Source: Candidatus Nanohalobium constans
GTDB taxonomy: Archaea > Nanohalarchaeota > Nanosalinia > Nanosalinales > Nanosalinaceae
Direction of reading: 5' to 3'
Assembly: GCF_009617975.1 (NCBI RefSeq)
Contig: NZ_CP040089.1
Coordinates: 941,464-973,463 of the forward strand
Length of the DNA stretch: 32,000 bases
Shown here: piece by piece, positions 4,512 to 27,013 of the stretch
How the letters are laid out: every line of letters begins with the position of its first letter
Position numbering within the stretch: position 1 is the first letter of the stretch
Notes under the pieces: generated by a model
Told to the model about the DNA's origin: nothing
What the model saw: only the letters and a program-made list of their open reading frames with translations
Database searches by the model: none
Program-made: the position numbers and the translations under genes

Positions 4512-4512
4512 A

Positions 4513-8540: not shown

Positions 8541-9542
8541 ATGAATTCTCAGCGGGGTTTTGTTCTGGTTTTGACCGCGGTTTTTTTGCTGATGGCAGGG
8601 CTGATGTTGAAGCCTTTTGTAGGGTATTTGTTGGGTAGTTTGGTTCTTGCTTTTGTTTTGCATCCCGCTCAGAAGTATTTGCGGAGGTTTATTGATGAGA
8701 GGATTTCAGCTTTTTTCTTGACTATTTTGAGTGTGCTGGTTTTCTTGCTGCCTTTTGCTATTATTGTGAGTACTGTTGCGGGAGATGCTTCCGGAGTAAT
8801 TAATGATGTTACTCAGAATGAGGTTGTTGATATTGATCAGTTGGAAGCGTTGATGGCAGAGTATACGGATGAAGATATAGATATTAGAACTCAGTTGAGA
8901 GATGCCGTCAACAGTTTTGTTTCCACAGCGCTTGGAGGATTTTCCCAAATTCTCGGCATTCTTACTGCAGTAAGTATAGGTGTGTCGATAATGTTGTTCG
9001 TGATTTTCTACCTGTTGAAAGATGGTGAGGAGTTTGCAGATTATTTGAAAGACTTGATGCCTCTACCTGAGGATATTGCAGATAGTCTTTACGCTAAGAC
9101 CTACAGTACTACCTGGGCTGTTATTAAGGGTCATGTGTTGGTTGCTTTGGCTCAGGGAGCTATTGCCGGTATCGGTTTGTGGGTTGCTGGAGTTCCAAAC
9201 TTTGTGTTCTGGACATTTGTGATGATTATGCTTTCGTTTATCCCTTTGATTGGTTCGTTCTTGGTTTGGGGTCCGGCAGGAATTTATCTTGTTGCTCTTG
9301 GAGAAGTTCATGCAGGAATATTTTTGCTTATTTACGGCGTTGTAATTGTTAATCTTACTGATAACTTTCTTAGACCATTTGTTGTAGATGAAAGTGCCGA
9401 TCTTCATCCCGCTGTGATATTAATCGGCGTTATTGGCGGTGTGTATGTTTTCGGTGCTTCAGGCTTGTTTATCGGCCCGGTTGTTTTCGGTACTTTGAAG
9501 GCAGTTCTTGAGGTTTTTAACAAGCATTATCAAGAACTTTGA
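8541..9542 (+). CDS. AI-2E family transporter (PerM/UPF0118-like membrane protein)
   Basis: 333 aa with about 8 TM segments. The C-terminal FGASGLFIGPVVFGTLKAVLEVF resembles the conserved PerM-family end. A TATTTTTAT box lies about 29 nt upstream. Confidence 0.7.
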   Translation: MNSQRGFVLVLTAVFLLMAGLMLKPFVGYLLGSLVLAFVLHPAQKYLRRFIDERISAFFLTILSVLVFLLPFAIIVSTVAGDASGVINDVTQNEVVDIDQLEALMAEYTDEDIDIRTQLRDAVNSFVSTALGGFSQILGILTAVSIGVSIMLFVIFYLLKDGEEFADYLKDLMPLPEDIADSLYAKTYSTTWAVIKGHVLVALAQGAIAGIGLWVAGVPNFVFWTFVMIMLSFIPLIGSFLVWGPAGIYLVALGEVHAGIFLLIYGVVIVNLTDNFLRPFVVDESADLHPAVILIGVIGGVYVFGASGLFIGPVVFGTLKAVLEVFNKHYQEL

Positions 9543-9579
9543 ACCTGTTTTATAATATATACGTGAGACAGTTTGGATT

Positions 9580-10365
9580 ATGACTAGTCATCGTGAATCA
9601 GTTGTTTTAGCTGTTATAGCCGTTATTTTGGTTTCCATTCCTGCGGCATCTCAGAATGTTGAAATCAGCGGAGAGGAAAATAAGCAGGGTGTGATCGATT
9701 CGAAGTTTTCTGATCGTTTTGAAGTTGATTTTGAGCCAGGTAAGGTTGTTAATGATTTGATGGATAGTGATGCGAGACTTGAGGTCAATCAAAGTTTTAG
9801 TAGAGATGTGAAGAGGCTTCAGACTTCTAAAGGTTTTGTTAAGATAGTTAGGACAAATGATTCTATTGAGAAAACTGTTCAGACTCCTTACGGTCGTTTT
9901 GAGTTTGGAGTGAAAGATGGCGATAATTACAGCGAGTTTTCTGGGAACAGCGGTTCTAGAGATGAGGCTGAAGAGGTTAGGGAGAACTTGATGGATGAGA
10001 TGAGTCAAAGGTCTTCGGAGTTAAGTGAGAAGCATAGTGTCGTGGTTCAGGAAATGCTTCCGGATGTCAGTGCTTCGGTTGAGGATAATTCAGAGACAGA
10101 GCATTTGAATTTGACGAATAACGAGGAGGAGGCAGTTGATATTTCTGGTTGGAAAGCAGTTTCTATCAGTGGAGATAGTATGGAATACATGAACTTAACC
10201 GGCAAGCTGGAGCCTGGTGAGACTAAGACCTTCTTTGCAGGTGACGAAGGCAGGATGGAAAATTTCGGAGACAATACTGTTTTTAAAGACGTGAATATTT
10301 ACAGTAATGCCTTAGTAAAGGTTTATAACGCTGGAGAGAAAGAAATAGTAAGTTTAGAGTATTAA
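9580..10365 (+). CDS. Secreted/anchored acidic protein with a C-terminal lamin-tail-domain-like module
   Basis: N-terminal hydrophobic signal/anchor (VVLAVIAVILVSIPAASQ). The C-terminal EHLNLTNNEEEAVDISGWKAVSISGDSMEYMNLTGKLEPGETKTFFAG resembles the LTD pattern (xVELxN...vDLSGWxL...L.PG). It has several N-x-S/T sequons. Confidence 0.55.
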   Translation: MTSHRESVVLAVIAVILVSIPAASQNVEISGEENKQGVIDSKFSDRFEVDFEPGKVVNDLMDSDARLEVNQSFSRDVKRLQTSKGFVKIVRTNDSIEKTVQTPYGRFEFGVKDGDNYSEFSGNSGSRDEAEEVRENLMDEMSQRSSELSEKHSVVVQEMLPDVSASVEDNSETEHLNLTNNEEEAVDISGWKAVSISGDSMEYMNLTGKLEPGETKTFFAGDEGRMENFGDNTVFKDVNIYSNALVKVYNAGEKEIVSLEY

Positions 10366-11796: not shown

Positions 11797-12204
11797 GTGG
11801 GAAGAGAAAGAGATTATCTCCAGAGTTTGTTAGCAGGTGAGTCCCGTGCTTATGGTTTCACTATTGCTTTTTGGGGTTCCGGGGCTATGTTGATCGGTCA
11901 GTATGGTATGCCTGATTTTATCCAGGCTGCTGCCTACGGGGCTGGAGCAGTGACAGGTTTCGGTCTTCTGGCTTTGATCGCTTTCAAGAATACTTTTTCC
12001 GCTATAGAAGATACTAAGAGCACTATGGTTGTCTTATCTATGATGCACTACTTGGCTGCGTTAATCCCTCTTATGATTTCGAAAGTGATCGTAGAGAATG
12101 TTTCTGTCCCTGCTTACGGGTTTTTCATGGCAGGAATGTCTGTCTCAGTTGTCTACAACGCCCTTTCTGTTTTAGAAGAAGATATAGCTGAGCTATTGAG
12201 TTAG
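11797..12204 (+). CDS. Hypothetical 4-TM membrane protein
   Basis: 135-aa ORF with a GTG start and a TTTTTAT box about 27 nt upstream. It is hydrophobic and I recognise no family. Confidence 0.5.
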   Translation: MGRERDYLQSLLAGESRAYGFTIAFWGSGAMLIGQYGMPDFIQAAAYGAGAVTGFGLLALIAFKNTFSAIEDTKSTMVVLSMMHYLAALIPLMISKVIVENVSVPAYGFFMAGMSVSVVYNALSVLEEDIAELLS

Positions 12205-12302
12205 TTAGGAAAGATCTATCCATTTACCCCTCCCTCCGATGTAGACCGATAATTTGGTTGTGACAGGATTTTACTCTACTGGCTATTAAGTTGCTGTTTT
12301 CT

Positions 12303-12977
12303 CTACCTTGTGTCATCCGGAACTATATCCAGTTCTAGGTGGTACTTCTTCCCGTTTCTCTCTATATAGGCGTTACGATGTGGAGGATAGGTCAAAGCCC
12401 TTAACTCATCTATGAAATCTTCCTTCGATGTTTCTTCATTAAGCTTTATCCTTCTCTCATCTTCCAAGTCTTTCTTGTAGTGTGTGGTGCCTCTTCCAGG
12501 GCTTTGTTGTGTTTTCTGTATATTTCCTTGTTTGATATCAGCCCAGTTTTCCTTGAACTGCTGGACTTGCTCCCTCATCAATCTTTCATGCAAACTTTTC
12601 CCTGTGTCGTCAGGATATACCGGCACCTCTCTTCGGTCTATTATCGGACCGTGATCTATTTCTTCTGTCATTTGGTGTATTGATACGCCGGCAGGAGTAT
12701 CCTCGATTATAGGCCAGATATACGGATGTGCCCCTCTGTTATACGGCAGAAAGGATGGATGGAGATTGATTATTCCTTTTTCAGGGACTTCGATTATCTC
12801 TTTAGGTACTTTGTGTTCGAAGCCTGCTGAGATAACTATTTCTGGCTCCAGTTTTTCTATCAGCGATAGTTGGTCTTTCTCTGTAAGTAGTGCGAGGACA
12901 TCAGTGTCTTCTCTCTGGTTCAGCCAGTTGTAGATTTCTTCGCCCGCCTGATTTTGTCCCAGGAAAACTGCCTCCAT
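12303..12977 (-). CDS. Formyltransferase-family protein (Fmt/ArnA N-terminal-domain-like; probable sugar N-formyltransferase)
   Basis: INLHPSFLPYNRGAHP matches the N-10-formyl-THF transferase core (HxSLLPxxRG). At 224 aa it lacks the tRNA-binding C-terminal domain of Fmt. It sits between two nucleotide-sugar SDR genes. Confidence 0.75.
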   Translation of the reverse strand: MEAVFLGQNQAGEEIYNWLNQREDTDVLALLTEKDQLSLIEKLEPEIVISAGFEHKVPKEIIEVPEKGIINLHPSFLPYNRGAHPYIWPIIEDTPAGVSIHQMTEEIDHGPIIDRREVPVYPDDTGKSLHERLMREQVQQFKENWADIKQGNIQKTQQSPGRGTTHYKKDLEDERRIKLNEETSKEDFIDELRALTYPPHRNAYIERNGKKYHLELDIVPDDTR

Positions 12978-13075: not shown

Positions 13076-13972
13076 ATGGAAATCGCAGTAACCGGAGGCG
13101 CCGGATTCATCGGCAGCCATCTAGCAGAAAAACTAATCGAAAAAGGTCACGACCTAACACTAATCGACAACCTCTCCTCCGGAGAACAAAAAAACATGCC
13201 CGAAGAAGCAGATTTTGAAAAAATAGACATCAAAGAAGATGATCTAACATGTCTAAGCGGGATAGATGTAGTTTTCCATCTTGCAGCCAACCCTAAAGTC
13301 AATACTTTTCCAGAAGACAGGGACAAAGACTTTGAGGAGAATTTGAAAGGTACAAAAAATGTTTTGGAAGCCTGCGAGAAATATGAAGTTGGAGAACTTA
13401 TTTTTGCTTCTTCTTCAGTTGTATATGGCGAAGATGCCGAAATTCCAACTCCTGAAGACGCTAACATGAGCCCTATATCGATGTACGGCGCCACAAAATG
13501 CGGAGGAGAGCACATGTGCCAAGTCTACCAGCAGATCTTCGACATAGATCTAACTATCGTTAGACTGGCAAATATTGTCGGCGGCAGAAACCAGAAAGGA
13601 GTAATATACGACTTCATCCACAAACTGAAAGACAATCCAGAAAAACTAGTGATACTAGGCAACGGAAAACAGAGGAAAAGTTATCTGCATGTCGAAGACA
13701 CGGTAGAAGGGATACTCGCTGCCCGGAAGTCAGATAAAACCGTTTTCAACATCGGTTCAGAGGACTCCATCGATGTAGATGGAATAGCCGACATAGTAGC
13801 AGACGAACTAGACCTAAGCCCGGATTACGAATACACTGGCGGAGAGAAAGGCTGGGAGGGCGATGTACCAGAAATGAGATTGAGTATTGAAAAATTGAAG
13901 TCGGAAGGCTGGAATCCAGAGAAAAATTCCGCTGAATCAGTGCGGAAAACTGTTCGAGAACTCCTGATTTAA
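13076..13972 (+). CDS. NAD-dependent nucleotide-sugar epimerase/dehydratase (extended SDR)
   Basis: VTGGAGFIGSHLAEKL motif, YGATK (YxxxK) motif, 298 aa. A TTATTTTA box lies about 29 nt upstream. Confidence 0.88.
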   Translation: MEIAVTGGAGFIGSHLAEKLIEKGHDLTLIDNLSSGEQKNMPEEADFEKIDIKEDDLTCLSGIDVVFHLAANPKVNTFPEDRDKDFEENLKGTKNVLEACEKYEVGELIFASSSVVYGEDAEIPTPEDANMSPISMYGATKCGGEHMCQVYQQIFDIDLTIVRLANIVGGRNQKGVIYDFIHKLKDNPEKLVILGNGKQRKSYLHVEDTVEGILAARKSDKTVFNIGSEDSIDVDGIADIVADELDLSPDYEYTGGEKGWEGDVPEMRLSIEKLKSEGWNPEKNSAESVRKTVRELLI

Positions 13973-14010: not shown

Positions 14011-14370
14011 CTAATCTTCAAGTTCTCTAGTCTCAGAGTATTCTCTGTAATCTTTGTCGCTGGAAACTATCTTTTCTTCTCCAGATGCTACGAGATGTAG
14101 TGCATCGAAAGGAGTGAAGTCTTCCTCCTCTACATAGCTTGCTGCGGCTTCTACCTCTTTAATCTCTCCTTTTACATCAATCAACTCTATTGCTTCAGCT
14201 ACTACCCTCAACACATTCATATTTTCCCTGTATGCGATCAACATAAGTTCAATCAGGGTGTAGCGGGAAGTCCAAAGATCATCATTTTTCTTGTAAATTT
14301 CTCTGGCATTTTCCTGCAGCCAGTCATCATCTTTCAGTAGTGCCAGTACAAAATCTGTCTCAGCATACAT
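14011..14370 (-). CDS. PIN-domain toxin (VapC-like)
   Basis: 119 aa with acidic PIN residues in ETDFVLAL, FDALHL and SSDKDY. It lies 1 nt downstream of the AbrB-type antitoxin gene. Confidence 0.8.
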   Translation of the reverse strand: MYAETDFVLALLKDDDWLQENAREIYKKNDDLWTSRYTLIELMLIAYRENMNVLRVVAEAIELIDVKGEIKEVEAAASYVEEEDFTPFDALHLVASGEEKIVSSDKDYREYSETRELED

Positions 14371-14371
14371 T

Positions 14372-14596
14372 CTATCGGCCTGCCTCTTCCATAGCAGTCT
14401 CTAAAGCACCTTTCTTAAGCTCTTCTACAGACTTATCAGTGCCTTCAAACTCTTCTCTTAGTGCCTCAAGAGGATCATCAGAGACAGGGACCAGCATTAT
14501 CTTATCCCCTCTATCTATAATATGGAACTTCTCACCGAACTTCTCCCTCATCTCCTTGGGAATGTATACTCTACCATTATCTGCAGTAGTAGTCAT
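14372..14596 (-). CDS. AbrB/SpoVT-type antitoxin (VapB-like)
   Basis: MTTTADNGRVYIPKEMREKFG... is a swapped-hairpin AbrB-like N-terminus. ATG 14596 is preferred over the track start 14635 because a TTTAAA box at 14619-14624 lies about 25 nt upstream. Confidence 0.75.
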   Translation of the reverse strand: MTTTADNGRVYIPKEMREKFGEKFHIIDRGDKIMLVPVSDDPLEALREEFEGTDKSVEELKKGALETAMEEAGR

Positions 14597-14628
14597 AAAA
14601 CAAGAATATTTGTCAAAATTTAAAAATC

Positions 14629-14670
14629 TTACCAATAAGGGGGGGAAACGCCTATTCTTTTAATTGGTAA
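14629..14670. promoter_or_regulatory. Inverted repeat TTACCAAT-N26-ATTGGTAA in the control region shared by two divergent TA operons
   Basis: Perfect 8-bp arms at 14629-14636 and 14663-14670. TTTAAA (14619-14624) and TTTTAAT (14657-14663) boxes serve the two start codons. A further palindrome, AGTCATTATGACT (14680-14692), spans ATG 14687. Confidence 0.4.
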
Positions 14671-14686
14671 TGAGTAATTAGTCATT

Positions 14687-14896
14687 ATGACTACTGTTAC
14701 TATCAGCGAAGATACCCATAGAAAGTTGAAGAAGTTGAAGGAGAAAGAAAAAATCAGCTCTTTTGACGAACTTCTGGATAATATTGCAGAGGAGAAACTG
14801 GACATACCTTCATCCGAAGAGATGTTCGGCTCCATGGAAATTGAAGACAAAGAAGAGATTAGAGATCACGACGACAGAGCCGATAGATATGAGTGA
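14687..14896 (+). CDS. Archaeal VapB-type antitoxin (MTTVTISEDTHRKLKKLK family)
   Basis: 69 aa. The N-terminal TISEDTHRKLKKLKEKEKISSFDELL pattern is typical of small archaeal PIN-associated antitoxins, and the tail is acidic. Its stop overlaps the downstream PIN start. Confidence 0.7.
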   Translation: MTTVTISEDTHRKLKKLKEKEKISSFDELLDNIAEEKLDIPSSEEMFGSMEIEDKEEIRDHDDRADRYE

Positions 14897-15284
14897 ATAC
14901 TTGCTTGACACATGGGCGTGGATAGAGTTCTACATCGGAAGCGAGAAAGGGAAAGAAATTTACCAGAAAATAGAGGAAGCGAAGTGTTACACCTCAATAG
15001 TATCCTTAGCGGAAATGTCTGACAATTACCAGTCAGGAAACCTAAAATCAGACAATAAATGGAGCGAAATTAGAGGCTTTGTAGAGTCTAAAACAGAAGT
15101 AGTGACTTTAACGCCCGAAATATGCGGAAATGCAGGAAAAATAAAACAGCAAGAAAGAGAAAAATTCTCAGACTTCGGACTAATGGATGCAATAATACTG
15201 TCAACCGCCAGAAAAAACGACCTAGAATTAATTACAGGAGACAAACACCTAAAAGATAAAGAAAGAGCAAAAAAGTTAGAATAA
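14889..15284 (+). CDS. PIN-domain toxin (VapC-like)
   Basis: Starting at MSEYLLDTWAWIEF, it has PIN acidic residues in LLDT, SLAE, MDAIIL and TGDKHL. The track ORF start (14763) is an upstream extension that overlaps the antitoxin. Confidence 0.8.
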   Translation: MSEYLLDTWAWIEFYIGSEKGKEIYQKIEEAKCYTSIVSLAEMSDNYQSGNLKSDNKWSEIRGFVESKTEVVTLTPEICGNAGKIKQQEREKFSDFGLMDAIILSTARKNDLELITGDKHLKDKERAKKLE

Positions 15285-15298: not shown

Positions 15299-16147
15299 TT
15301 ATTGCTTTCTTCTATCCAAGACAGGATTTACATTATCGAAAAATCTGTTTGAACTTGATTTTGCTACCCATACATTATTTTGCTGTATGTTACATTCTAC
15401 ATTGAGATTTTGAAGTATTTGCTGCACCATTTTCTTCTCTTGTTCATCATAGGAGCAGATTCTGGGCGACCCGCAAGGATGAAGATTTCCATCTGAATCG
15501 TATTGTCCTTCGATATATTTCCAGGCCTTCCCTTCTTCAAAAAGCCAATCCACTTTATTTTCCAAATTTTGTAGCCATTCAGCAAGTACTTGTGATGATG
15601 CCCAAACAGCGTCTTTGCCTTCTTTCTGTCCTGTATTAGGATTTAGACCTAAGGCTTTCAGGTTTTCTACAAATTTTTCAGCAAATTCTGAATCTTTGAC
15701 TTCAAGCCCTATTGTGCCGTTATTATCATGAAATCCATCTCCATCAATAACTCCTAGAATATAAGATAAAGATTCAGTTTGCCCGAATTTGACATCAATT
15801 TCATTTTCTTCGGCAAGTTTTCTGCATTTCTCAGCGACCTCTTCACTATTCCTGTATTCTTCTTGGTTTCTTGCTAAACCTAGATCCATTGCCTTGAGCT
15901 TTATGGCATTCCAACTTCTCTCTGGAAGTAATTCTGAAATCTCGGATTTATCTCCAGGATAATTTTCCCTCAATATCCGCTTTTCTTCTTCTGACCACGG
16001 GTCAGCGATATCCGACTTAATATCATATTCGCTCATCCATTTAGAGACAGAAGACTGTGTAACTCCTAATTTTTCACCAATCTGTCTTTGACTCAAATCC
16101 TCATCGTGGTATAACCTGTAAAGCTCTTCAGCGCTTACCTTAGACAT
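15299..16147 (-). CDS. Free-standing LAGLIDADG homing-endonuclease-like protein with N-terminal HTH and Myb/SANT-like modules
   Basis: Two LAGLIDADG-type motifs (YILGVIDGDGF and YIEGQYDSDGN) lie about 90 aa apart. The N-terminus has an HTH (LSQRQIGEKLGVTQSSVSKWM) followed by WSEEEKRILRENYPG...SWNAIKLKAMDLGL (Myb/SANT-like). The gene is AT-rich with T-ending codons, unlike its neighbours. There is no intein or intron host. Confidence 0.75.
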   Translation of the reverse strand: MSKVSAEELYRLYHDEDLSQRQIGEKLGVTQSSVSKWMSEYDIKSDIADPWSEEEKRILRENYPGDKSEISELLPERSWNAIKLKAMDLGLARNQEEYRNSEEVAEKCRKLAEENEIDVKFGQTESLSYILGVIDGDGFHDNNGTIGLEVKDSEFAEKFVENLKALGLNPNTGQKEGKDAVWASSQVLAEWLQNLENKVDWLFEEGKAWKYIEGQYDSDGNLHPCGSPRICSYDEQEKKMVQQILQNLNVECNIQQNNVWVAKSSSNRFFDNVNPVLDRRKQ

Positions 16148-16187: not shown

Positions 16188-17156
16188 TTAGAATGTTCCC
16201 GAAGCCATCAAAGGAACTTTAGACCCTGCTGCCGCAATAGGAACGGCCATGTACCCCAATTTTCTCAATTTATCCATAATCTCCTTGTCGTCTTTGTTTT
16301 GGGCTCTTCCTGCTCTTTCTTTGGTGTTTTCTACATCTTGTAGCCATGCAGGGATTTCATCGCTTTTGTCTGTGGATACTTCGCTTCCTAGGCTTCTGAA
16401 TCCTGCCCAGTACTTTGGTGAAATCGGTACATCGTCTTTGTTGAGTCCTTCCGGCAGATCTTCTTCTGTTTCCGGGTAGCTGTTGATTTCTACTCCTGTG
16501 ATGTCTGGCACCATGTGGAACCAGGATACATCCCATACATCTCTTTCGTCTAGTTGTAGGATGGGGTGTACTCTGATGTGGTCTGGGTCGCTTCTTGGAC
16601 TGTAGAAGTCTTCGTCACCTCTACTTTCGTGTTCGTCCCATCTTACTCCGTTGATCACTGCTTCAATATTGTGGTTTTCAAGCAGTTCGTGCATTGGAAC
16701 TGTTTTGAGAAGGTGGTTTCCTGCTTCTGTATCCATGAGCCATGGTACTTCTTCGTAGTCTCCTACTTCTTCAGCTGCTTCCTGATTTCTGTCGTTGAGT
16801 TCTGCCACAGGTACTTTGTCTCCTGGTTGGTCTGCTTTTTCTATTAGGTCTTCGTTTTTGGCCGTCATTACTTCGAATCCCCAGTTGTCGGCTAGTCTTT
16901 CGACATAGTCTTCGAGTTCGTCGAAGTGTTGTCCGTGGTCTACGAACATGAACTTGGGTTTGTCGAAGCCGTGTTCTTCGCAGACTCTTTTGACAAGCCA
17001 TGCTGTCAGTGTGGAGTCTTTCCCCCCTGTGAATCCGATTACTACATTGTCGGTGTCGTATTCTTCTAGTGCTTGTTTGACGACTTCTTCTCCTGCTCTG
17101 ATTTTAGCTTTTATCGGTGCGTTCTCAATTTCGTCTCGTGTTACAGGTGCTTCCAT
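16188..17156 (-). CDS. PP-loop ATP pyrophosphatase of the PAPS-reductase/CysD family (CysD-like)
   Basis: PP-loop GFTGGKDST. NGVRWDEHESRGDEDFYSPR and IRVHPILQLDERDVWD resemble CysD (GARRDEEKSRAKERxxSFR, RVFPLSNWTExDIW). ERAGRAQNKDDKEIMDKLRKLGYM resembles the CysD C-terminus (ERxGR..DRD...GYF). It has no CysH-type ECG[IL]H motif. ATG 17156 is preferred over TTG 17168. Confidence 0.8.
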   Translation of the reverse strand: MEAPVTRDEIENAPIKAKIRAGEEVVKQALEEYDTDNVVIGFTGGKDSTLTAWLVKRVCEEHGFDKPKFMFVDHGQHFDELEDYVERLADNWGFEVMTAKNEDLIEKADQPGDKVPVAELNDRNQEAAEEVGDYEEVPWLMDTEAGNHLLKTVPMHELLENHNIEAVINGVRWDEHESRGDEDFYSPRSDPDHIRVHPILQLDERDVWDVSWFHMVPDITGVEINSYPETEEDLPEGLNKDDVPISPKYWAGFRSLGSEVSTDKSDEIPAWLQDVENTKERAGRAQNKDDKEIMDKLRKLGYMAVPIAAAGSKVPLMASGTF

Positions 17157-17174
17157 AGATAGTATCAACTCTGT

Positions 17175-17366
17175 TTATTCTAGATATCCTAATTGTCTCA
17201 GTTTATCCGCGATCTCCTTTGCCTGATCATCGTCAAGCTCCTCTTGCTGGTTCTCTGAATCAGCCAGTTCTCTAAGCTTGTCTTGTACGAATCTTGATAG
17301 ATTGATGTGATTCTCATCGACAAACTCTGCCAAATCCTCAGGCAAAGAAATAGTCTTCCTCGGCAT
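17175..17366 (-). CDS. Ribbon-helix-helix (CopG-like) small DNA-binding protein, first gene of an operon with the CysD-like gene
   Basis: MPRKTISLPEDLAEFVDENHINLSRFVQDKLRE is an RHH pattern (beta strand followed by two helices); 63 aa. The track ORF (to 17618) is an extension that overlaps the flippase gene. A perfect 17-bp palindrome abuts the start codon. Confidence 0.7.
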   Translation of the reverse strand: MPRKTISLPEDLAEFVDENHINLSRFVQDKLRELADSENQQEELDDDQAKEIADKLRQLGYLE

Positions 17367-17440: not shown

Positions 17441-18997
17441 ATGGGAGATGCCGATCAAAAAGCATTGAACGCACTGGCAAAGGGTGCTGGCGTGACTGCG
17501 ATAGGGATGGGTATTTCCAAGGTATTGACTTATCTTTACCGGGTTTCAATTGCCCGTTTTGTTGGTCCTGAGGCGTACGGTCAGTTGTCAACTGCTTTGA
17601 TGGTTGTCGGTATTGCAAGCACTGTCGCCTACCTGGCTCTGGGCTCAGGTTTGAAGAAGTTTATACCAGAATTCAGAAGTAGAGATGATTTTGCAAGTAT
17701 TAAGGGCATAGTTATCAGTGCACTCCAGTTAACCGTTCCTGTATCTATAATCATTTTCCTGGCAGTGTTCTTCGGAGCAGAGTTCATCGCTGTAACTATT
17801 TTTGAAAACCCGAAACTAGTTCCTCTCATAAAGATTCTATCGTTCACTATACCTGCAGGAACCCTTTCCAGACTCTTCTTCGATACAACACTGGGATTCA
17901 ACAAGATAATTTACAAGACCGGGACAGTCAGGATATTTCAAAACATTGTTCAGCTTGGGACAACCCTGATACTTCTTTTAATGGGTTTTAAAGTAGTGAG
18001 TGCTGCTTATGGCTGGTTACTGGGAACCGTAGTTGCTGCCATTCTCGGTTTCTACTTTATGGAGAAAAAAGTAGGTCCAATACTTTTCTCCAAGACTAAA
18101 CCCTCCTATCACCGAAAAAAGCTGCTCAGATTTTCCACCCCACTGCTACTCTCAGGAATAATAGGAACACTGCTCGGCTGGGCAGACACAGGACTGCTAC
18201 AATACTTCATGGAAGACCTTGAAGTAGGACTGTACAACGCAGCCCTGCCTACCGCCATACTGATACTTCTGCCTCACAAAGCAATTGGAAGCCTGGCAAT
18301 CACTTCATTCTCCGAGCTAAAGGAAAGAGACAAAGAAAGCGTAGAGAGCTCCATACAAAGAGCCACATACTGGGTTTTCTCACTTGTATTCCCTACCTTC
18401 CTCATAATGCTCCTATTCTCAGACAAAATACTGCAAATACTCTGGGGATCAGAATACACACAAGCCTCAATAGCACTCTCAATTCTAGCAACAGGATACC
18501 TAATAGACGCCCTAGTAGGCAGAGTAGGAAGCCTCCTCCAATCAGAAGGACACACAAAATACATACTATACAACAACACAGCAGCACTAACACTCAACAT
18601 CATACTCAACATCATACTAATACCTCCATACGGAATAGCTGGAGCAGCAATCGCCACAGCAACCTCCACCATACTAACCAACGTATTAATGTACATCGAA
18701 GTCCGGAAAAAAGAAGGAATAAACAGCATACCCCACAAAAAAATCTCAAAAATAGTACTAACCGGACTAATACCACTATCAATCATAATAACACTAGACA
18801 CAATACTCTTCACAAACACACCATACTGGTTCCTGATCCCAGCAGGAACAACCTACATTACAACCTACATCCTCCTATTCCTCAAAACAATAGGACTTGG
18901 AGAAGAAGAAAAAGAAGTATTTCTCAGGATAGGAGAGATCACAGGAACAAAAGATAAGGTTAAAAAAATACTGGCAACCATAGAGAGAAGAATTTAA
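17441..18997 (+). CDS. Oligosaccharide flippase, MOP/Wzx family (AglR-like)
   Basis: 518 aa with about 14 TM segments, the polysaccharide-biosynthesis-protein architecture and the glycosylation context. A TTTAAA box lies about 28 nt upstream. Confidence 0.8.
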   Translation: MGDADQKALNALAKGAGVTAIGMGISKVLTYLYRVSIARFVGPEAYGQLSTALMVVGIASTVAYLALGSGLKKFIPEFRSRDDFASIKGIVISALQLTVPVSIIIFLAVFFGAEFIAVTIFENPKLVPLIKILSFTIPAGTLSRLFFDTTLGFNKIIYKTGTVRIFQNIVQLGTTLILLLMGFKVVSAAYGWLLGTVVAAILGFYFMEKKVGPILFSKTKPSYHRKKLLRFSTPLLLSGIIGTLLGWADTGLLQYFMEDLEVGLYNAALPTAILILLPHKAIGSLAITSFSELKERDKESVESSIQRATYWVFSLVFPTFLIMLLFSDKILQILWGSEYTQASIALSILATGYLIDALVGRVGSLLQSEGHTKYILYNNTAALTLNIILNIILIPPYGIAGAAIATATSTILTNVLMYIEVRKKEGINSIPHKKISKIVLTGLIPLSIIITLDTILFTNTPYWFLIPAGTTYITTYILLFLKTIGLGEEEKEVFLRIGEITGTKDKVKKILATIERRI

Positions 18998-19722
18998 TCC
19001 CTTAAATCATACTCTCTGTTGGCTTCTCTCAGTCTTTCTGGAGTTCCAACATCTATTCGTGAACCTTGGATTTCATCATATCCCACTTTGTAACCATTTT
19101 CTCTCATCAAGTCTATTGCGTCGGTTAATTGGTACTCATCGCCTTTACCCTTCTCTATATTATCTATAGCCTCGAAGATTTGAGGTCCGAAGACATACAT
19201 ACCTGAGATACACAGATCAGAAGGTGCTTCATCAGCAGACGGCTTCTCAACCATTCCCTCCACCAAGTTATCATCTCCAGGTTCTAGGACGCCATAAGAA
19301 GTCACATCATCTGGCTTGAAAGCTCCGATGGTTGCGTCCATGCTGTTGTGTTTGTGGAACTTGACCAGCTCATTCATAGCCTTCTTATCATCAACATAGT
19401 TGTCTCCCAGAACCACTGCAAAATGTTCATCATTGATTACATGTTCTCCAGCTTTTACTGCTCCAGCTAGACCATTTCTGTCATCCTGAACCACATAAGT
19501 CAACTGTACGCCGTAATCATCACCAGATCCTAAGTAGTCTAGGATTGCGTGCTGTTTCCAGCCAACCACAATTACAATTTCTTCAATACCTGCTTCCTTC
19601 ATATCCTCAATACAGTGTTCGATCACTGCTTTTTCCCCTACAGGAAGAAGTTCCTTCGGATAAGCGTTCGTGAACGGCTCCATTCTAGTGCCTTTCCCAG
19701 CTGCCGGAATCAATCCTTTCAT
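18994..19722 (-). CDS. Sugar-1-phosphate nucleotidyltransferase (glucose-1-P uridylyl/thymidylyltransferase, AglF-like)
   Basis: MKGLIPAAGKGTRMEPFTNAYPKELLPV is the canonical G-x-G-T-R NTP-transferase N-terminus; 242 aa. It is divergent from the UDP-glucose dehydrogenase gene. Confidence 0.88.
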   Translation of the reverse strand: MKGLIPAAGKGTRMEPFTNAYPKELLPVGEKAVIEHCIEDMKEAGIEEIVIVVGWKQHAILDYLGSGDDYGVQLTYVVQDDRNGLAGAVKAGEHVINDEHFAVVLGDNYVDDKKAMNELVKFHKHNSMDATIGAFKPDDVTSYGVLEPGDDNLVEGMVEKPSADEAPSDLCISGMYVFGPQIFEAIDNIEKGKGDEYQLTDAIDLMRENGYKVGYDEIQGSRIDVGTPERLREANREYDLRD

Positions 19723-19747
19723 GATAATACCACATATTACCGATATC

Positions 19748-19753
19748 TTTTAT
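19748..19753. promoter_or_regulatory. Central AT-rich box (TTTTAT) of the divergent aglF-like / ugd pair
   Basis: The centre is 28.5 nt from ATG 19722 (minus strand) and 26.5 nt from ATG 19777 (plus strand), within a 54-bp intergenic region. Confidence 0.4.
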
Positions 19754-19776
19754 CCTTATCTCGGCAAACAAAAAGT

Positions 19777-21072
19777 ATGCACATCTCAGTCGTAGGAACA
19801 GGCTATGTCGGTTTGCCGGCAGGAACAGGATTGGCATCCAGAGGAAACCAAGTCACATGTATAGATATAGACGAAGAAAAAGTAGAGAAGATCAACAATG
19901 GAGACTGTCCAATCTACGAAGAAGATCTTCCAGAATTACTTGAAGAGATGGTTTCTCAAGGAAAACTTTCTGCTACTACAAACACTGCTGAAGCTGTAGC
20001 CGACTCAGATATTACTTTTCTGGCTGTCGGAACGCCGATGAACAATGATGGAAGCATAAATCTAGAGTATATTAAACAGGCTGCTGAAGACGCAGCAGAA
20101 GGAATAAAGGAAAAAGACGGATACCACGTATTCGTCGTTAAATCTACTGTAGTTCCTACAACGACCGAAGAAGAAATAATCCCTATACTAGAAGTAGTTT
20201 CCGGCAAAAAAGCCGGTGAAGACTTCGGGGTATGCATGAACCCGGAATTCCTGAGAGAAGGAACCGCACTAAACGACTTCCTAGAACCAGACAGAATAGT
20301 AATCGGCGAACTAGATGAGAAATCCGGAGACACACTGGAGAAAGTATACTCGGAATTTGATGCACCAATTATGAGAACTTCTCTGAAGGCGGCCGAACTG
20401 ATTAAATATGCTTCCAACTCTCTGCTAGCAACTAAAATTTCATTTATCAACGAGATCGGCAACCTGTGTAAAGAACTTGGTATAGATGTCTACGAAGTAG
20501 CAGACGGAGTTGGAATGGATCACAGAGTCAAAAGAGACTTCCTAGACTCGGGGGCCGGCTTCGGCGGGAGTTGTTTCCCAAAAGATGTGAGAGCACTTGC
20601 TTCATTTATGGAAGATCAAGGAGAAGAACCACGTATACTTGAAGATACAATCTCCGTCAACGAAGACCAGAAAACCAAACTAGTCGAACAGCTCGAAGAC
20701 CACTACCCTGACCTCTCAGGAAAGAAGATCGCAGTATTAGGCCTCTCATTTAAGCCTGGGACTGATGATATCAGACAAAGTCCAGCAATCGATATCATCT
20801 CAGAACTGAAAGAACTCGGAGCACAAATCAAGGCCTATGATCCAAAAGCGATCGAAAACATGAAAGAAAAACATCCGGATGTAGAATACACCTCCAGCTA
20901 CGAAGAAGCTCTGGAAGATACAGACGCAGGTCTCATAGTAACAGACTGGGACGAATTCAACGCCATCGATCGTGGAGACCTACAGACCATGAACAAAGCC
21001 TTACTGCTTGAAGGTCGCAGAATGAGCTACGATGTAGATGAAGAAAACAGAGAGGGTATTACATGGCCATGA
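19777..21072 (+). CDS. ugd: UDP-glucose 6-dehydrogenase (AglM/Ugd-like)
   Basis: MHISVVGTGYVGLPAG NAD-binding motif and catalytic GFGGSCFPKD motif; 431 aa from ATG 19777. The track start at 19549 is an extension that is antisense to the neighbouring gene. Confidence 0.92.
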   Translation: MHISVVGTGYVGLPAGTGLASRGNQVTCIDIDEEKVEKINNGDCPIYEEDLPELLEEMVSQGKLSATTNTAEAVADSDITFLAVGTPMNNDGSINLEYIKQAAEDAAEGIKEKDGYHVFVVKSTVVPTTTEEEIIPILEVVSGKKAGEDFGVCMNPEFLREGTALNDFLEPDRIVIGELDEKSGDTLEKVYSEFDAPIMRTSLKAAELIKYASNSLLATKISFINEIGNLCKELGIDVYEVADGVGMDHRVKRDFLDSGAGFGGSCFPKDVRALASFMEDQGEEPRILEDTISVNEDQKTKLVEQLEDHYPDLSGKKIAVLGLSFKPGTDDIRQSPAIDIISELKELGAQIKAYDPKAIENMKEKHPDVEYTSSYEEALEDTDAGLIVTDWDEFNAIDRGDLQTMNKALLLEGRRMSYDVDEENREGITWP

Positions 21073-23932: not shown

Positions 23933-25258
23933 CTATTCAACTCTCCATTCATACAGTACTTTTGCTTTGCTTTTCAATTCAGTGGCTTTATCCAGATCCA
24001 TTTTTTCGTTTTCTGTTAAGACCTCTGATTTCCAGACGTATTCACCTTCTGTGGTTAGGTCATATTTTATTTCTGAATTAATTAAAGAGAAGCTTTTGCG
24101 GTTGTAGATTTGTTCGCATCCTTCCGGTATTTTTCTTCCAAATTGTTGGACGAACCCTTTTCTGCCGAAGTATTCTGAGTTAAGTATTTCCCGGGATTCT
24201 ACCTCGCTGTCTTGAATGAGGCCGTGAATTATGTCTATCATTTCTGTGTGGCTGTAGAGACCTCTTTCATCAATCTCCAAGTCTAGTTCTCTACCTTTGC
24301 TGAAGATGATGCAAGGTACTTCTACGAGTTCTTTGTAGGTGCCGAGGTGGTGGCCTATTAGCTTGGTTCCTTGCTTTTCGTATTCTCCTATCAGTTCTCC
24401 ATGATCACCAAGAACAATGAAGACTGTATTCTCTGGAGCTTCTCTGTAGAAGTTTCTTATTTTTCTGTCGGCATATCTTATCGAGGCCTTGTATGCTTTC
24501 TGTCGTATATCGAGCTTGGTGTCCGAGAATCCTTCCGGCAGGTAATCTTCGAGGACCTTAGTCTGTGAGGCGTCTAGTACCTCTTCTTCAGAATAATCGG
24601 ATAGATATGACTCCCTGTCTTCTTCGTCAAATGTGTAAGGCGAGTGTACCGGCATGATGTTGGCGAATACGAATTCATCTTTCTCGGATTTGAGTTTCTT
24701 GTTCGCTTCTTCTAGAGTTCTTACTGTTTTCCCCGAGTTGTGGTCTGCTTCTCTTGAGGTGAACTTATCGGTTATGTGTCGGAAGAAACTTTTAGCTGAA
24801 TCAATATCTCGTTTCTTTATAGTCTTCTTGAAGAAGTAGCTGTATTTTTCTTTTCTGCCGGAGAATTCGTCGTCTTTCTGCCAGATCTCTTTCCAAGTAT
24901 CTCCTCCGAGGTCTTCAGTTGTCTGTACAAACTGCTGGAATCCCTCGCTGAACCCTGTTTCCTCTGTTATCAAATGGTTCTCTGTGAAGGCAGAGGTACT
25001 AAATCCTTTTGACACAAGCATCGATGTCAACATGTTCTCTTCGCTGAAATAGGTGTTTTCTGTCGTTGTTCCATGTTCTGAGGATAGCTTCCCTGAGAAA
25101 AGTGATGCGTGCGCTGGCACAGTCCAGGGAGAGTTAGCGTAGTAGTTTTCCAAATGAAGACCTTCTTCCGATTTCTCAGATAGGAATGGAGCTATCGAAT
25201 TATCTTTTACAAAATCTTTCTTTCTCCAGGTATCGACAACTAAGAGAACTATATTCAT
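23933..25258 (-). CDS. Sulfatase-fold alkaline-phosphatase-superfamily protein with Thr nucleophile motif (phosphodiesterase/phosphotransferase-like, not a formylglycine sulfatase)
   Basis: NIVLLVVDTWR, NSPWTVPAHASLFSGKLSSEHG (TxPxH...G....EHG as in NPP-type enzymes, with no C/S-x-P-x-R motif) and FIVLGDHGELIGE; 441 aa with no TM segment. Confidence 0.7.
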   Translation of the reverse strand: MNIVLLVVDTWRKKDFVKDNSIAPFLSEKSEEGLHLENYYANSPWTVPAHASLFSGKLSSEHGTTTENTYFSEENMLTSMLVSKGFSTSAFTENHLITEETGFSEGFQQFVQTTEDLGGDTWKEIWQKDDEFSGRKEKYSYFFKKTIKKRDIDSAKSFFRHITDKFTSREADHNSGKTVRTLEEANKKLKSEKDEFVFANIMPVHSPYTFDEEDRESYLSDYSEEEVLDASQTKVLEDYLPEGFSDTKLDIRQKAYKASIRYADRKIRNFYREAPENTVFIVLGDHGELIGEYEKQGTKLIGHHLGTYKELVEVPCIIFSKGRELDLEIDERGLYSHTEMIDIIHGLIQDSEVESREILNSEYFGRKGFVQQFGRKIPEGCEQIYNRKSFSLINSEIKYDLTTEGEYVWKSEVLTENEKMDLDKATELKSKAKVLYEWRVE

Positions 25259-26175: not shown

Positions 26176-27013
26176 CAACCGCACCTTTCACTTCTAACCA
26201 AGGCACTTCAACAAGTTCTTTTTCTTTTCTTCCTATGCTGTGGCCCCATCCTCCTTCTCCTAGTAGTTCTCCGTGGTCTGATGTGACTATTATTTTGCCT
26301 TCTAGTTGTTCTACTAGTTTTTCTACTTGTTCTAAGGCTAGCCTGAGGTCTTCTGTGTAGTATTGTTTGACTTGTTCTTCGCCTTGTTCTCTGGCTAGTT
26401 TTTCGTAGTTGTTTCCTAGCCCCAGTATTTCCTTAACTTTGGTCTGGAATCTGTAAGGTGTTAATTCGAATAAAGGGTTCCAGATCGGCCTTGTTGTATC
26501 CAGTATTTTCCTCAGTGTTGATTCTTCTTCGTCTTCTAGTTTGTTTTTTGGCGCCCAGTCGAAGTCTGTTTCTCCTAGTGAGATGAACGGTCTGTGTGGC
26601 TGTATGAAGTGTATTATCGTCTTTGAACCATCTAGGTTTTCTTCAGCTGTCTTCCTGAAGTCTTCTGGTCTTACTGTGTTTATTTCTTCGTCCCAGTCGT
26701 GTATCCAGGAGTCGACTATGTTCGTGAATTTGTCGGCTGCACTCCAGTCCCGGTCTTGACCGCTGACAAGATCTCCCAGTGACAGACCTTGGCCGTTGAT
26801 GTATGGGTTGGCGGAGATGTAGTTGTAGTTATATCTTCTGCCGTCGAAAGTGTTCCACAGCCATTCTGGTGTTGCGGAGCCTCTACTCTTGACTTTCTTC
26901 AGGTCGCCCTCTAGAAAGCCCTCATAGTTGTCTCTGAAGTAGTCGTATCTACATGCGTCTAGGATGATGAGGTAGTCCCAGTCTGTTCCGTGGATGTCTT
27001 GTTTCTGCGTCAT
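26168..27013 (-). CDS. Alkaline-phosphatase-superfamily protein (sulfatase/NPP-like), soluble
   Basis: From MTQKQDIHGTDWDYLIILDACRYDYF: SATPEWLWNTFDG (T-x5-N-x3-G) and IIVTSDHGELLGEGGWGHS. ATG 27013 forms ATGA with the PIN stop. The track start at 27136 is an extension across the PIN gene. Confidence 0.6.
   Translation of the reverse strand: MTQKQDIHGTDWDYLIILDACRYDYFRDNYEGFLEGDLKKVKSRGSATPEWLWNTFDGRRYNYNYISANPYINGQGLSLGDLVSGQDRDWSAADKFTNIVDSWIHDWDEEINTVRPEDFRKTAEENLDGSKTIIHFIQPHRPFISLGETDFDWAPKNKLEDEEESTLRKILDTTRPIWNPLFELTPYRFQTKVKEILGLGNNYEKLAREQGEEQVKQYYTEDLRLALEQVEKLVEQLEGKIIVTSDHGELLGEGGWGHSIGRKEKELVEVPWLEVKGAVDD

Follow-up and report, generated by a model that had tools for sequence, protein, structure and literature searches.

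Local strand bias at silent sites changes polarity within an intact flippase gene of Candidatus Nanohalobium constans

The window analyzed here, a 32,000-nucleotide stretch of the Candidatus Nanohalobium constans genome, contains at 17441-18997 on the plus strand an intact gene encoding a 518-aa MOP/Wzx-type oligosaccharide flippase with matches to the Pfam families Polysacc_synt, Polysacc_synt_3, MatE, and MurJ. The locus is a surface-glycosylation cluster that includes AglB, glycosyltransferases, and sulfatases. Upstream, on the minus strand, lie a PAPS-reductase-family (CysD-like) gene recognized by a Pfam-type domain match (16188-17168) and a small RHH-like gene of 63 aa that is divergent from the flippase gene (17175-17366); a gene of 62 to 63 aa is called at the position of the latter in L063 and L065 to L067. 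On the other side, a minus-strand nucleotidyltransferase gene (18994-19722) converges on the flippase gene with a 4-bp overlap, and a plus-strand gene identified by domain match as UDP-glucose 6-dehydrogenase (ugd) occupies 19780-21072. Directly beyond the nucleotidyltransferase stop codon, an A7 run (18962-18968), which reads as T7 on the minus strand, looks like a terminator.

A preliminary description of this DNA had reported a change from keto (G+T) to amino (A+C) polarity inside the flippase gene, and the change was upheld. Recounting gave exactly the same values: 40 of 60 nucleotides are G or T at 17521-17580, 47 of 60 are A or C at 18541-18600, and 19 of the first 30 nucleotidyltransferase codons end in G or T. 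We use K3 for the proportion of codons with G or T at the third position. Profiled in 40-codon windows on the flippase ORF, K3 was 0.62 to 0.72 at 17.44 to 17.6 kb, 0.38 to 0.42 at 17.7 to 17.9 kb, 0.57 at 17.9 to 18.0 kb, 0.25 to 0.30 at 18.07 to 18.3 kb, and 0.00 to 0.10 at 18.4 to 18.85 kb, so that the drop is spread over about 700 bp (approximately 17.7 to 18.4 kb) with a rebound midway. The maximum-likelihood change point fell at codon 231 (nt 18134). Because the likelihood plateau spans 18.01 to 18.16 kb, the change is a gradient rather than a step. Along the plus strand, the profile thus comprises a 5' segment rich in G/T-ending codons (17441-17710, codons 1 to 90; K3 0.53 to 0.73, z +1.8 to +3.7); a second, weaker G/T-ending sub-block just before the inter-lobe loop (17891-18070; K3 0.50 to 0.57), where K3 is 0.20 to 0.24 higher than in orthologs; a transition zone containing the change point, in which K3 goes from 0.30 to 0.20 (18071-18400); and an extreme A/C patch with K3 of 0.00 to 0.10 (18401-18910), also apparent in third-position composition and at codon positions 1 and 2.

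G/T endings accounted for 106 of 204 codons among codons 1 to 210 versus 38 of 281 among codons 231 to 518 (Fisher p = 7e-20). Codons 331 to 480 had 7 such endings in 147, compared with 37% for the remainder of the window (binomial p = 3e-20), and codons 1 to 90 had 53 in 87, versus 37% elsewhere (p = 7e-6). Amino acid composition fails to explain this pattern: the K3 expected from composition was 0.37 to 0.45 in all 30-codon bins, whereas the observed values lay above it in the first two bins (z-scores of +2.0 to +3.7) and below it in all five bins covering codons 331 to 480 (-3.4 to -4.5). Two earlier characterizations needed tempering. The 3' part is indeed A/C-rich, but its use of CTA, ATA, ACA, and CTC is not almost exclusive, as CTG supplies 11 of 46 Leu codons; the preference for G/T endings in the 5' part is present but only moderate (52% over codons 1 to 200). 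Third positions in the A/C patch are 0.57 A, 0.36 C, 0.04 G, and 0.03 T, and the 150-codon K3 minimum of 0.053 was the lowest among the approximately 750 genes examined. The third-position purine fraction changes from 0.47 to 0.61; the shift therefore does not consist of transitions only, and simple deamination is insufficient. A 181-aa open frame antisense to the gene (18274-18819, minus strand) is missing from the SG9, VS9-1, and L066 orthologs, which still have the dip in K3; it is no gene but a consequence of the G/T richness of the minus strand. The silent-site strand bias of the flippase gene is real, very unusual, and local.

The protein encoded in the window is 100% identical to the Candidatus Nanohalobium constans flippase. 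Homologs numbered 423, over 400 of which align colinearly with the uninterrupted ORF; the top non-self matches are nanohaloarchaeal, with 74 to 76% identity over the full length. The gene is kept across Nanohaloarchaea, protein divergence is even along its whole length, and every segment has the same nearest relatives at similar identity. The N. constans branch is 1.2 to 1.4 times that of its relatives in every segment except codons 481 to 518, a short C-terminal tail with a ratio of 0.84. Synteny around the gene is conserved among relatives, and the nearby gene order varies between genera. The switch junction contains neither repeats nor mobile elements, G+C content does not shift along with K3, and we found no mosaic, mobile-element, or mis-assembly sign in the gene. 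Mis-assembly and recombination, both considered in the preliminary description, thus left no trace. From the even identity, the uniform N. constans branch, the kept synteny, and the unbiased orthologs of the AI-2E and LTD genes described below, we conclude that the flippase gene is ordinary, was inherited vertically, and acquired its bias in place.

The window as a whole is patchy. Codons ending in A or C are the norm on both strands (K3 of about 0.37; TTC 233 versus TTT 87, TAC 182 versus TAT 111, AAA 342 versus AAG 181) and are not, as had been proposed, a property of the plus strand. Instead of a single switch, the 32 kb contain at least six extreme K3 patches of both polarities. The biased patches span 0.1 to 2.5 kb, the end compositions of the two polarities are mirror images, and the standard deviation of K3 in 40-codon windows is 0.17, versus a binomial expectation of 0.078. 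A plus-strand block of the opposite polarity at 7600-10365 (K3 0.6 to 0.93) covers the 3' two-thirds of TctA, an AI-2E transporter gene, and an LTD protein gene, and contains what the preliminary description called a first switch. K3 is 0.7 to 0.93 over 2.5 kb of this block, its transmembrane helices are encoded by codons made up of G and T alone (for Val, Gly, Phe, Leu, Trp, and Cys), the DNA at 8.3 to 8.7 kb is G/T-rich at all three codon positions, and a 42-nt intergenic spacer (8499-8540) is about 76% G+T by hand count. The L066 orthologs of the AI-2E and LTD genes are unbiased (K3 0.44 and 0.47), indicating that the N. constans lineage acquired this bias itself. Other nanohaloarchaeal genes had no general 5'-to-3' trend in K3. 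An unrelated Methanosarcinales MAG reaches an equally extreme end composition that is clearly strand-based over 13 kb.

The genes flanking the flippase gene did not bear out strand-wide blocks on either side. The proposed continuous G/T-rich plus strand upstream is interrupted by the RHH-like gene, which has a K3 of 0.59. The CysD-like gene has a K3 of 0.25, falling to 0.10 to 0.14 near its 5' end (orthologs, 0.34 to 0.52). Downstream, where a strand-based A/C block had been suggested, the nucleotidyltransferase gene has a coding K3 of 0.53, equivalent to a near-neutral 0.47 on the plus strand, and ugd has a K3 of 0.34; both match orthologs in other genera (0.48 to 0.62 and 0.31 to 0.34, respectively), and this holds also for a genome that carries the nucleotidyltransferase gene 2.5 kb from the flippase gene. 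In related genomes, the coding-sense K3 values of opposite-orientation neighbors are anticorrelated (permutation p = 0.0002, with syntenic and hence pseudo-replicated loci), which hints at a regional strand-based component. In VS9-1 and M3_22, an A/C-rich plus strand is common to the flippase gene and the minus-strand genes that follow it.

The dip at codons 360 to 450 recurs at the same codons, in shallower form, in six other nanohaloarchaeal lineages: Nanohalovita, L065, L066, SG9, VS9-1, and, weakly, L067. It is present in L066 although the downstream genes there are co-oriented. Over the first 90 codons, N. constans K3 lies 0.08 to 0.23 above the mean of seven orthologs (+0.2 over the first 60). 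We compared N. constans with each of five orthologs at discordant sites by codon position. Across codons 331 to 480, N. constans is A/C-shifted at position 1 (6 to 8 versus 18 to 23 sites), position 2 (5 to 8 versus 16 to 19), and position 3 (3 to 6 versus 32 to 51). Across codons 1 to 90, it is G/T-shifted at position 3, significantly so against four of the five, with only a slight, nonsignificant G/T excess at positions 1 and 2. At otherwise conserved positions within 331 to 480, N. constans-specific amino acid replacements run 12:1 toward A/C from G/T. Since positions 1 and 2 and these lineage-specific replacements shift the same way, the pressure extends beyond codon choice. Four-fold sites are saturated, and A-versus-C identity within the patch stays close to the chance level in three of four orthologs, reaching 0.72 in SG9, so the patch is not due to sequence conservation. 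The dip overlaps N386-S409, the densest cluster of invariant residues; the N-terminal 100 residues and residues 234 to 270 are equally conserved and have no dip. None of the sampled lineages has a K3 near 0.05. Sulfatase orthologs have a common K3 dip too. N. constans amplifies the shape of the flippase profile of its orthologs.

A search for replication origins, as the preliminary description had advised, located an ORB-like inverted pair, TTCCACATGAAATCAGGGGGT, at 31111-31131 (plus strand) and 31868-31888 (minus strand), with 0 chance matches expected. Three copies of this motif lie directly upstream of orc1/cdc6 in the relative M3_22, and the segment bounded by the boxes, 31111-31888, is a probable origin. 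It lies 12 to 13 kb from the flippase switch. We rejected the switch itself as an origin, and a terminus so near the predicted one is implausible. The gene lies about 7 to 13 kb from an origin or chromosome-record end in N. constans, M3_22, Nanohalovita, and VS9-1, and in all four it faces the oncoming fork.

These positions bear on the replication-type polarity switch that had been proposed, in which the switch would mark a leading/lagging change at an origin, terminus, or fork barrier. Replication GC/keto skew shares the chemistry of this bias (G+T versus A+C), and its orientation independence has a partial counterpart in the anticorrelated neighbors at related loci and the shared A/C-rich plus strand of VS9-1 and M3_22; the Methanosarcinales MAG indicates that very strong orientation-independent skew can exist, and the nearness of the gene to origins would fit. 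This explanation is nevertheless very improbable: the ORB pair is at 31.1 to 31.9 kb and not at 18 kb, there are at least six reversals of K3 sign in 32 kb, genes on both strands mostly have A/C endings, the M3_22 origin has no K3 polarity switch across it, and the nucleotidyltransferase and ugd genes equal their orthologs elsewhere. To our knowledge, the K3 amplitude is also far above that of known replication skews. An assembly or sequencing artefact, such as a strain-variant chimera or systematic base-calling error, has nothing in its favor and is scarcely credible, given the intact, colinear ORF, the nearly all synonymous or conservative changes, and the same dip in assemblies made independently for other genera; the genome was published as a closed chromosome (PMC7443923). 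Recombination or gene conversion could instead have swapped the 3' (or 5') part for a related allele with another codon regime, leaving an old junction in a glycan-cluster hotspot. Surface-glycosylation clusters are known as recombination-prone, gene order here differs among genera, and the whole window is patchy. We nonetheless regard such a mosaic as improbable: each segment has the same nearest relatives at similar identity, the branch ratio is uniform outside the C-terminal tail, the change is gradual with a rebound, G+C content is steady, the junction lacks repeats and mobile elements, no sampled lineage could have donated a K3 near 0.05, and the lineage-specific amino acid changes carry the direction of the patch.

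Selection on translation or mRNA is unlikely but deserves more weight. On this view, a reduced tRNA set would read codons ending in A or C by Watson-Crick pairing, making them optimal. Selection for fast and accurate decoding, or for A/C-rich mRNA free of structure, would be strongest in the 3' part, where the most conserved motif lies, and the 5' part would keep slow, wobble-decoded codons, for example allowing membrane targeting. Both strands of the window prefer A/C endings, the exact partners of G34/U34 anticodons. The N. constans genome carries just 39 tRNA genes (PMC7443923), from which standard archaeal decoding rules imply that it lacks several C34 tRNAs. Whole-gene K3 and dips within genes are kept between synonymously saturated genera, and the flippase dip persists whichever way the downstream gene points and overlaps the invariant cluster. 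As in known intragenic codon heterogeneity (ramps, or optimal codons at conserved sites), codon choice varies along the gene, at a position conserved among orthologs. Unlike with translational ramps, however, nonsynonymous positions move in the same direction, other genes have no general ramp, and the magnitude is far beyond typical. Equally conserved regions lack the dip, the 2.5-kb G/T-rich block would need anti-optimal selection and is unbiased in L066, and a codon bias of about 95% would be exceptional for a flippase of a small-population symbiont.

We tentatively favor, as possible rather than probable, a local strand-asymmetric mutation pressure, possibly transcription-linked, superimposed on a preference for A/C-ending codons throughout the genome; this mechanism is putative. 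Such directional pressure on nucleotide composition would act on the flippase gene in place, driving the plus strand of its 3' third nearly to A/C fixation wherever the protein tolerates it and acting in reverse on the first 90 codons. The most likely cause would be asymmetric damage or repair with one DNA strand preferentially exposed. The mutational nature of the pressure and the control of its polarity by transcription are inferred. Polarity and strength would depend on local conditions, probably on which way net transcription runs (sense versus internal or antisense), on R-loops, or on head-on conflicts with forks from the nearby origin. Several observations sit uneasily with a mutational reading. 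The T7 run disfavors long antisense read-through from the nucleotidyltransferase gene, which is itself much less biased than the A/C patch. Most window genes are A/C-rich on the coding strand, and transcription-associated asymmetry usually turns that strand G/T-rich. The change in purine fraction means that deamination alone would not be enough, and a dip at the same codons across synonymously saturated genera would be simpler as a gene-intrinsic, selective effect. An equilibrium K3 of about 0.05 implies a rate asymmetry of about 19-fold (estimated as (1-K3)/K3), which exceeds any replication or transcription bias that we know of.

Known systems offer partial parallels to the favored mutation pressure. 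In vertebrate mitochondrial DNA, one strand is long single-stranded and silent sites are A+C-driven, with G and T nearly absent; this asymmetry, which breaks Chargaff's second parity rule and is attributed to damage of the exposed single strand, resembles the patch (A 0.57, C 0.36), and there, too, amino acid composition follows the bias and its strength is graded along the DNA. The N. constans bias differs in occupying patches of 0.1 to 2.5 kb on a cellular chromosome, reversing polarity within a gene and between neighbors, having no tie to a replication origin, and including transversions. Transcription-associated asymmetry in enterobacteria and mammals is likewise strand-specific at the scale of genes or kilobases, affects silent and replacement sites alike, and may differ between adjacent transcription units. 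Published examples are weak, with a G+T-rich coding strand, unlike the mostly A+C-rich coding strands, near-saturated amplitude, and sign flip inside one transcription unit found here. The dip shared with other genera suggests that the pressure is persistent as well as local, and the N. constans lineage has amplified the shallower profile seen there and made other patches, of either polarity, in neighboring genes.

The open reading frame at 17441-18997 on the plus strand is 100% identical to the annotated flippase of Candidatus Nanohalobium constans. This DPANN nanohaloarchaeon has a closed chromosome of 973,463 bp and only 39 tRNA genes (PMC7443923). The protein belongs to the MOP/Wzx flippases. 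With a full-length profile match as the membership criterion, all four of its Pfam matches exceeded the gathering scores (Polysacc_synt, 3e-25; Polysacc_synt_3, 3e-23; MatE, 4e-12; MurJ, 1e-11). The reading frame is unbroken over 518 amino acids, and colinear nanohaloarchaeal homologs cover 99-100% of it at 40-76% identity. The gene sits in a surface-glycosylation cluster, among genes for AglB/STT3, SecDF, sugar epimerases, ugd, glycosyltransferases, and sulfatases. Its immediate surroundings, PAPS-reductase (CysD-like; 16188-17168, minus), RHH (17175-17366, minus), flippase (plus), NTP-transferase (18994-19722, minus), and ugd (19780-21072, plus), are kept in the same order and orientation in the relative Nanohalovita and in the fetched locus L065. 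The flippase and convergent NTP-transferase genes overlap by 4 bp. An A7 run at 18962-18968 (T7 on the minus strand) lies inside the 3' end of the flippase gene, 26 nt beyond the NTP-transferase stop codon, and is likely an archaeal oligo-T terminator embedded in the flippase coding sequence.

Farther from the flippase gene, AglB/STT3 (852-3521, minus) has an orientation relative to the flippase opposite to that in Nanohalovita, L065, and M3_22 (compared loci: L063, 1-1468; L065, 1-1384; L001, from M3_22, 85-2751, plus). In N. constans, SecF, SecD, SDR, TctA, AI-2E, and LTD genes lie between the two, so this lineage has undergone a rearrangement of the glycosylation cluster. Between a PIN gene and the CysD-like gene is a free-standing 282-aa LAGLIDADG_3 protein with an N-terminal HTH (15299-16147, minus); it resembles a homing endonuclease, and the fetched relatives lack it at this site. 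Toxin-antitoxin-like pairs are dense in the window: a PIN gene with an AbrB/MazE-like gene (14011-14635), a second PIN gene (14763-15284), HEPN with a minimal nucleotidyltransferase (29368-30055), and two small ORFs (30133-30674).

We measured codon bias as K3, the fraction of codons with G or T at the third position. The preliminary description had reported a switch from G/T- to A/C-ending codons at about 18060-18080 inside the flippase gene, and its three hand counts were all reproduced exactly. The location was fair, but the change is a gradient rather than a step. In 40-codon windows, K3 was 0.62-0.72 at 17.44-17.6 kb, 0.38-0.42 at 17.7-17.9 kb, 0.57 at 17.9-18.0 kb, 0.25-0.30 at 18.07-18.3 kb, and 0.00-0.10 at 18.4-18.85 kb. 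The likelihood-ratio change point fell at nt 18134, on a broad plateau spanning 18.01-18.16 kb. Within codons 331-480, referred to here as the patch, 7 of 147 informative codons end in G or T, versus 37% elsewhere in the window (p = 3e-20), and the two halves of the gene differ in G/T endings (Fisher p = 7e-20). The 150-codon minimum of the flippase, 0.053, was the lowest among the approximately 750 genes of all fetched loci; the minimum in the 243 other nanohaloarchaeal genes was 0.14. Third positions in the patch are A 0.57, C 0.36, G 0.04, and T 0.03. The third-position purine fraction moves from 0.47 to 0.61, which excludes a signature of transitions (deamination) only.

Several local explanations were rejected. 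Amino acid composition predicts a K3 of 0.37-0.45 all along the gene. A bias peculiar to membrane proteins does not fit, since SecD, SecF, and AglB are A/C-ending and low-K3 patches affect soluble and membrane proteins alike. A conserved overlapping antisense gene was likewise rejected. An embedded RNA or DNA element under nucleotide-level conservation was discarded because identity at 4-fold sites was near chance, and Rfam and tRNA searches for such an element gave no matches. A DGR locus is unique to N. constans, but DGR mutagenesis is specific to adenines, which is at odds with a patch rich in A. A "like-with-like" rule, by which third positions follow the first two and mRNA pairing is minimized, gave r = 0.30 in N. 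constans and r = 0.08 in relatives and is therefore not a general rule.

Comparison with orthologs revealed that the shape of the K3 profile is partly conserved. The mean K3 of seven flippase orthologs was 0.39-0.50 at the 5' end and dropped to 0.19-0.26 over codons 361-450. This dip was clear in Nanohalovita (0.13-0.27), L066 (0.10-0.20), SG9 (0.10-0.20), and VS9-1 (0.07-0.17). It was less pronounced in L065, L067, and M3_22, and higher-GC lineages lacked it. Synonymous sites are saturated between the compared genera, and A-versus-C identity within the dip was near chance for three of four orthologs (SG9, 0.72); composition, rather than sequence, is therefore shared. The dip is present in L066 although the genes downstream are co-oriented there; it thus does not require a convergent neighbor. 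A convergent downstream gene, or antisense read-through, is accordingly weakened as its cause, both by L066 and by the T7 run beyond the stop codon of the NTP-transferase gene.

N. constans amplifies this shape. Its flippase K3 lies about 0.2 above the ortholog mean at 17441-17620 and 17891-18070 and 0.2-0.3 below it at 18341-18880. In codons 331-480, N. constans is shifted toward A/C at all three codon positions against each of five orthologs. In codons 1-90 it is shifted toward G/T at position 3, with a slight, nonsignificant excess at positions 1 and 2 (five orthologs). Lineage-specific replacements at otherwise conserved positions of the patch run 12:1 from G/T to A/C and include F to L, V to I, I to T, W to R, and G to T.

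The flippase patch has counterparts elsewhere in the window, where at least six extreme K3 patches of both signs were found and the standard deviation of 40-codon K3 was 0.17, versus 0.078 expected. The largest, at 7.6-10.4 kb, has the opposite polarity (K3 0.6-0.93) and covers the 3' two-thirds of TctA, AI-2E, and LTD. This block (7600-10365) corresponds to the first switch of the preliminary description; it continues more weakly to 12204. The K3 of hyp135 is in the same 0.6-0.93 range. At 8.3-8.7 kb, G and T prevail at all three codon positions, giving helices of Val, Gly, Phe, Leu, Trp, and Cys, and the one spacer examined (42 nt, counted by hand) is about 76% G+T. The L066 orthologs are unbiased (K3 0.43-0.47; AI-2E, 0.44; LTD, 0.47), and the block therefore arose in the N. 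constans lineage. The two polarities are mirror-image ends: the composition of the flippase patch on one side and, on the other, T at about 0.5 and G at 0.3-0.4 with A and C rare. Further patches with K3 of 0.10 or less over 40 codons are found at the 3' end of SecD (6001-6150), the 5' end of an epimerase gene (13076-13195), the CysD-like gene (16870-16988), and a gene for a 322-aa hypothetical protein (26210-26416). Sulfatase orthologs provide a second case of a conserved intragenic dip: in three genera, K3 falls to 0.03-0.23 at about codons 280-360, directly after the GDHGE motif (window 24090-24360; L066, 18005-19324; L063, 16384-17703). Antitoxin-like genes have consistently high K3 (0.6-0.8) in several genera.

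The change in the flippase had also been read as part of a strand-wide polarity switch, with a plus strand rich in G/T upstream and in A/C downstream regardless of coding sense. Our results for the most part do not bear this out. Endings in A or C are the norm on both strands, with K3 of 0.25-0.45 in most genes of either strand, so the CysD-like gene and ugd merely follow this norm. Upstream, the proposed G/T-rich block is broken by the RHH gene (K3 0.59), located between the CysD-like gene and the flippase. Downstream, the NTP-transferase gene is indeed G/T-ending relative to the baseline (K3 0.53; z = +3.5), but projected on the plus strand its K3 is essentially neutral (0.47). Nor is the downstream pattern particular to N. 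constans: the same K3 is seen in other genera for NTP-transferase (0.48-0.62, including the L066 gene, 2.5 kb from the flippase) and ugd (0.31-0.34). Among flippase, NTP-transferase, and ugd, only the flippase is shifted in N. constans.

Two ORB-like boxes, TTCCACATGAAATCAGGGGGT, form an inverted pair at 31111-31131 (plus) and 31868-31888 (minus), where none is expected by chance, and the motif TTCCACATGAAATCAGGGGGT is present in three copies immediately upstream of orc1/cdc6 in Nanohaloarchaea archaeon M3_22 (L001, 17923-18306). The pair at 31111-31888 probably marks the N. constans origin, which would therefore be 12-13 kb to the right of the switch. It flanks a 147-aa minus-strand ORF, and a palindrome is present at 31934-31969. 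No cdc6 gene or ORB was found near 18 kb. In M3_22, Nanohalovita, and VS9-1, too, only about 7-12 kb separate the flippase from the origin or from the point where the chromosome record ends, and K3 polarity does not change across the M3_22 origin. Long orientation-independent skew domains do not flank the switch, which is neither an origin nor a plausible terminus; replication-associated strand asymmetry is thus a very unlikely account of it.

In related loci, coding-sense K3 deviations were anticorrelated between opposite-orientation neighbors and correlated between same-orientation neighbors (permutation p = 0.0002 each), a test that is pseudo-replicated, given the synteny of the loci and the conservation of K3 at the level of genes. 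In VS9-1 and M3_22, the plus strand is A/C-rich both in the flippase and in the minus-strand genes that follow it. These observations are suggestive only, and K3 in the related loci may have a strand-based component. Very strong orientation-independent skew was seen in an uncultured Methanosarcinales MAG (CAZCCU010000001.1; L051, 1-13186). Its plus-strand genes have K3 of 0.66-0.77, except for two adjacent, near-neutral genes at 3332-6083 (0.53-0.55), and its minus-strand genes are mostly at 0.15-0.29, with one neutral gene at 11888-12604 (0.50). Third positions of its most biased minus-strand genes are A 0.5, C 0.3, G 0.1, and T 0.08. The MAG thus reaches the same end state as the N. constans patch, but its skew spans at least 13 kb.

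If the flippase were a mosaic assembled by recombination, its segments should have different histories, and we found evidence of neither recombination nor misassembly in the gene. Identity to relatives is even along its length, with the same nearest relatives for each segment, and the branch specific to N. constans is 1.2-1.4 times as long as that of the relatives in every segment except a short C-terminal tail (0.84). The change extends over about 700 bp without an abrupt junction, G+C stays at 0.39-0.45 throughout, and repeats and mobile elements were looked for at the junction and not found. Together with the gene order kept in Nanohalovita and L065, these results make a mosaic distinctly improbable; an assembly or sequencing artifact is hardly credible. 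The conserved order and orientation also exclude, at this locus, a small inversion preserving an older skew, as does the intactness of both genes with switches. A stronger case can be made for selection alone, as translational selection or a codon ramp. The endings in the patch are the preferred ones (elsewhere the window has a K3 of 0.37), with C over T in Phe, Tyr, Asn, and His codons and A over G in Lys and Glu codons; the dip occurs at the same codons across genera; and most genes are A/C-rich on the coding strand. Under standard decoding rules, a set of only 39 tRNA genes makes the A- and C-ending codons the ones that are paired exactly. The effect is not confined to synonymous choice, however, since codon positions 1 and 2 and amino acid replacements shift likewise. 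There is no general 5'-to-3' trend, the meta-gene K3 profile of 128 soluble-protein genes being flat within ±0.02, and preferred codons cannot explain stretches in which K3 reaches 0.9. The fetched loci contained no highly expressed marker genes for calibrating K3 against expression. On balance, selection by itself is an unlikely cause.

We tentatively favor, at somewhat less than an even chance, a local strand-distinguishing pressure on nucleotide composition that arose or was amplified in place, because replacement sites are affected, both polarities share an end state, and a K3 of 0.9 defies selection for preferred codons. The asymmetry is observed at silent and replacement sites, with the 42-nt spacer as the only noncoding sequence examined. 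In vertebrate mitochondrial DNA, an asymmetric strand is attributed to prolonged single-strandedness, and its end composition recalls that of the patch. Our best guess is that the exposed strand would be set by the net direction of transcription, through internal or antisense promoters and R-loops. The T7 terminator-like run after the NTP-transferase gene, which limits antisense read-through, is the only, indirect clue on transcription. Forks from the origin meeting the flippase head-on may be a further factor; the gene faces origin-derived forks in four lineages with an origin or chromosome-record end nearby. Against a purely mutational pressure stand the dip conserved at the same codons across genera, the A/C-rich coding strand of most genes, and the exact pairing of A- and C-ending codons with the tRNA set. 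It is therefore plausible that selection for A/C endings and an asymmetric mutation process specific to this lineage act together. Rather doubtful is the broader proposal that N. constans, and other nanohaloarchaea to a lesser degree, harbor an undescribed kilobase-scale, strand-specific mutational process whose polarity can reverse within a gene. One strand would lose nearly all G and T at tolerated sites, reshaping codon usage and the amino acid makeup of membrane helices. Candidate causes would be persistent R-loops or antisense transcription, head-on conflicts beside the origin, recombination-dependent synthesis with long single-stranded intermediates, and lineage-specific loss of a repair function.

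Asymmetry between strands and heterogeneous codon usage within genes are already known kinds of features. Our search for literature on skew or codon usage in Nanohaloarchaea found nothing relevant, and we did not find described for this group a near-saturated patch, shorter than a gene, whose polarity reverses inside an intact gene of vertical descent. Such patches yield long spurious antisense ORFs and can mimic horizontal transfer in island detectors based on codon usage. If the cause is selective, the flippase would represent unusually strong position-specific codon optimization in a genome with few tRNA genes. If it is mutational, the patches record, on a scale finer than the gene, which DNA strand is chronically exposed in an organism cultivable only in coculture, and transcription-replication conflicts, R-loops, and reduced DPANN repair would become testable from sequence and one strand-specific transcriptome. 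Local nucleotide pressure can also choose the hydrophobic residues of transmembrane helices, with Val, Gly, Phe, and Trp in one patch and Ile, Thr, Ala, Pro, and Asn in another.
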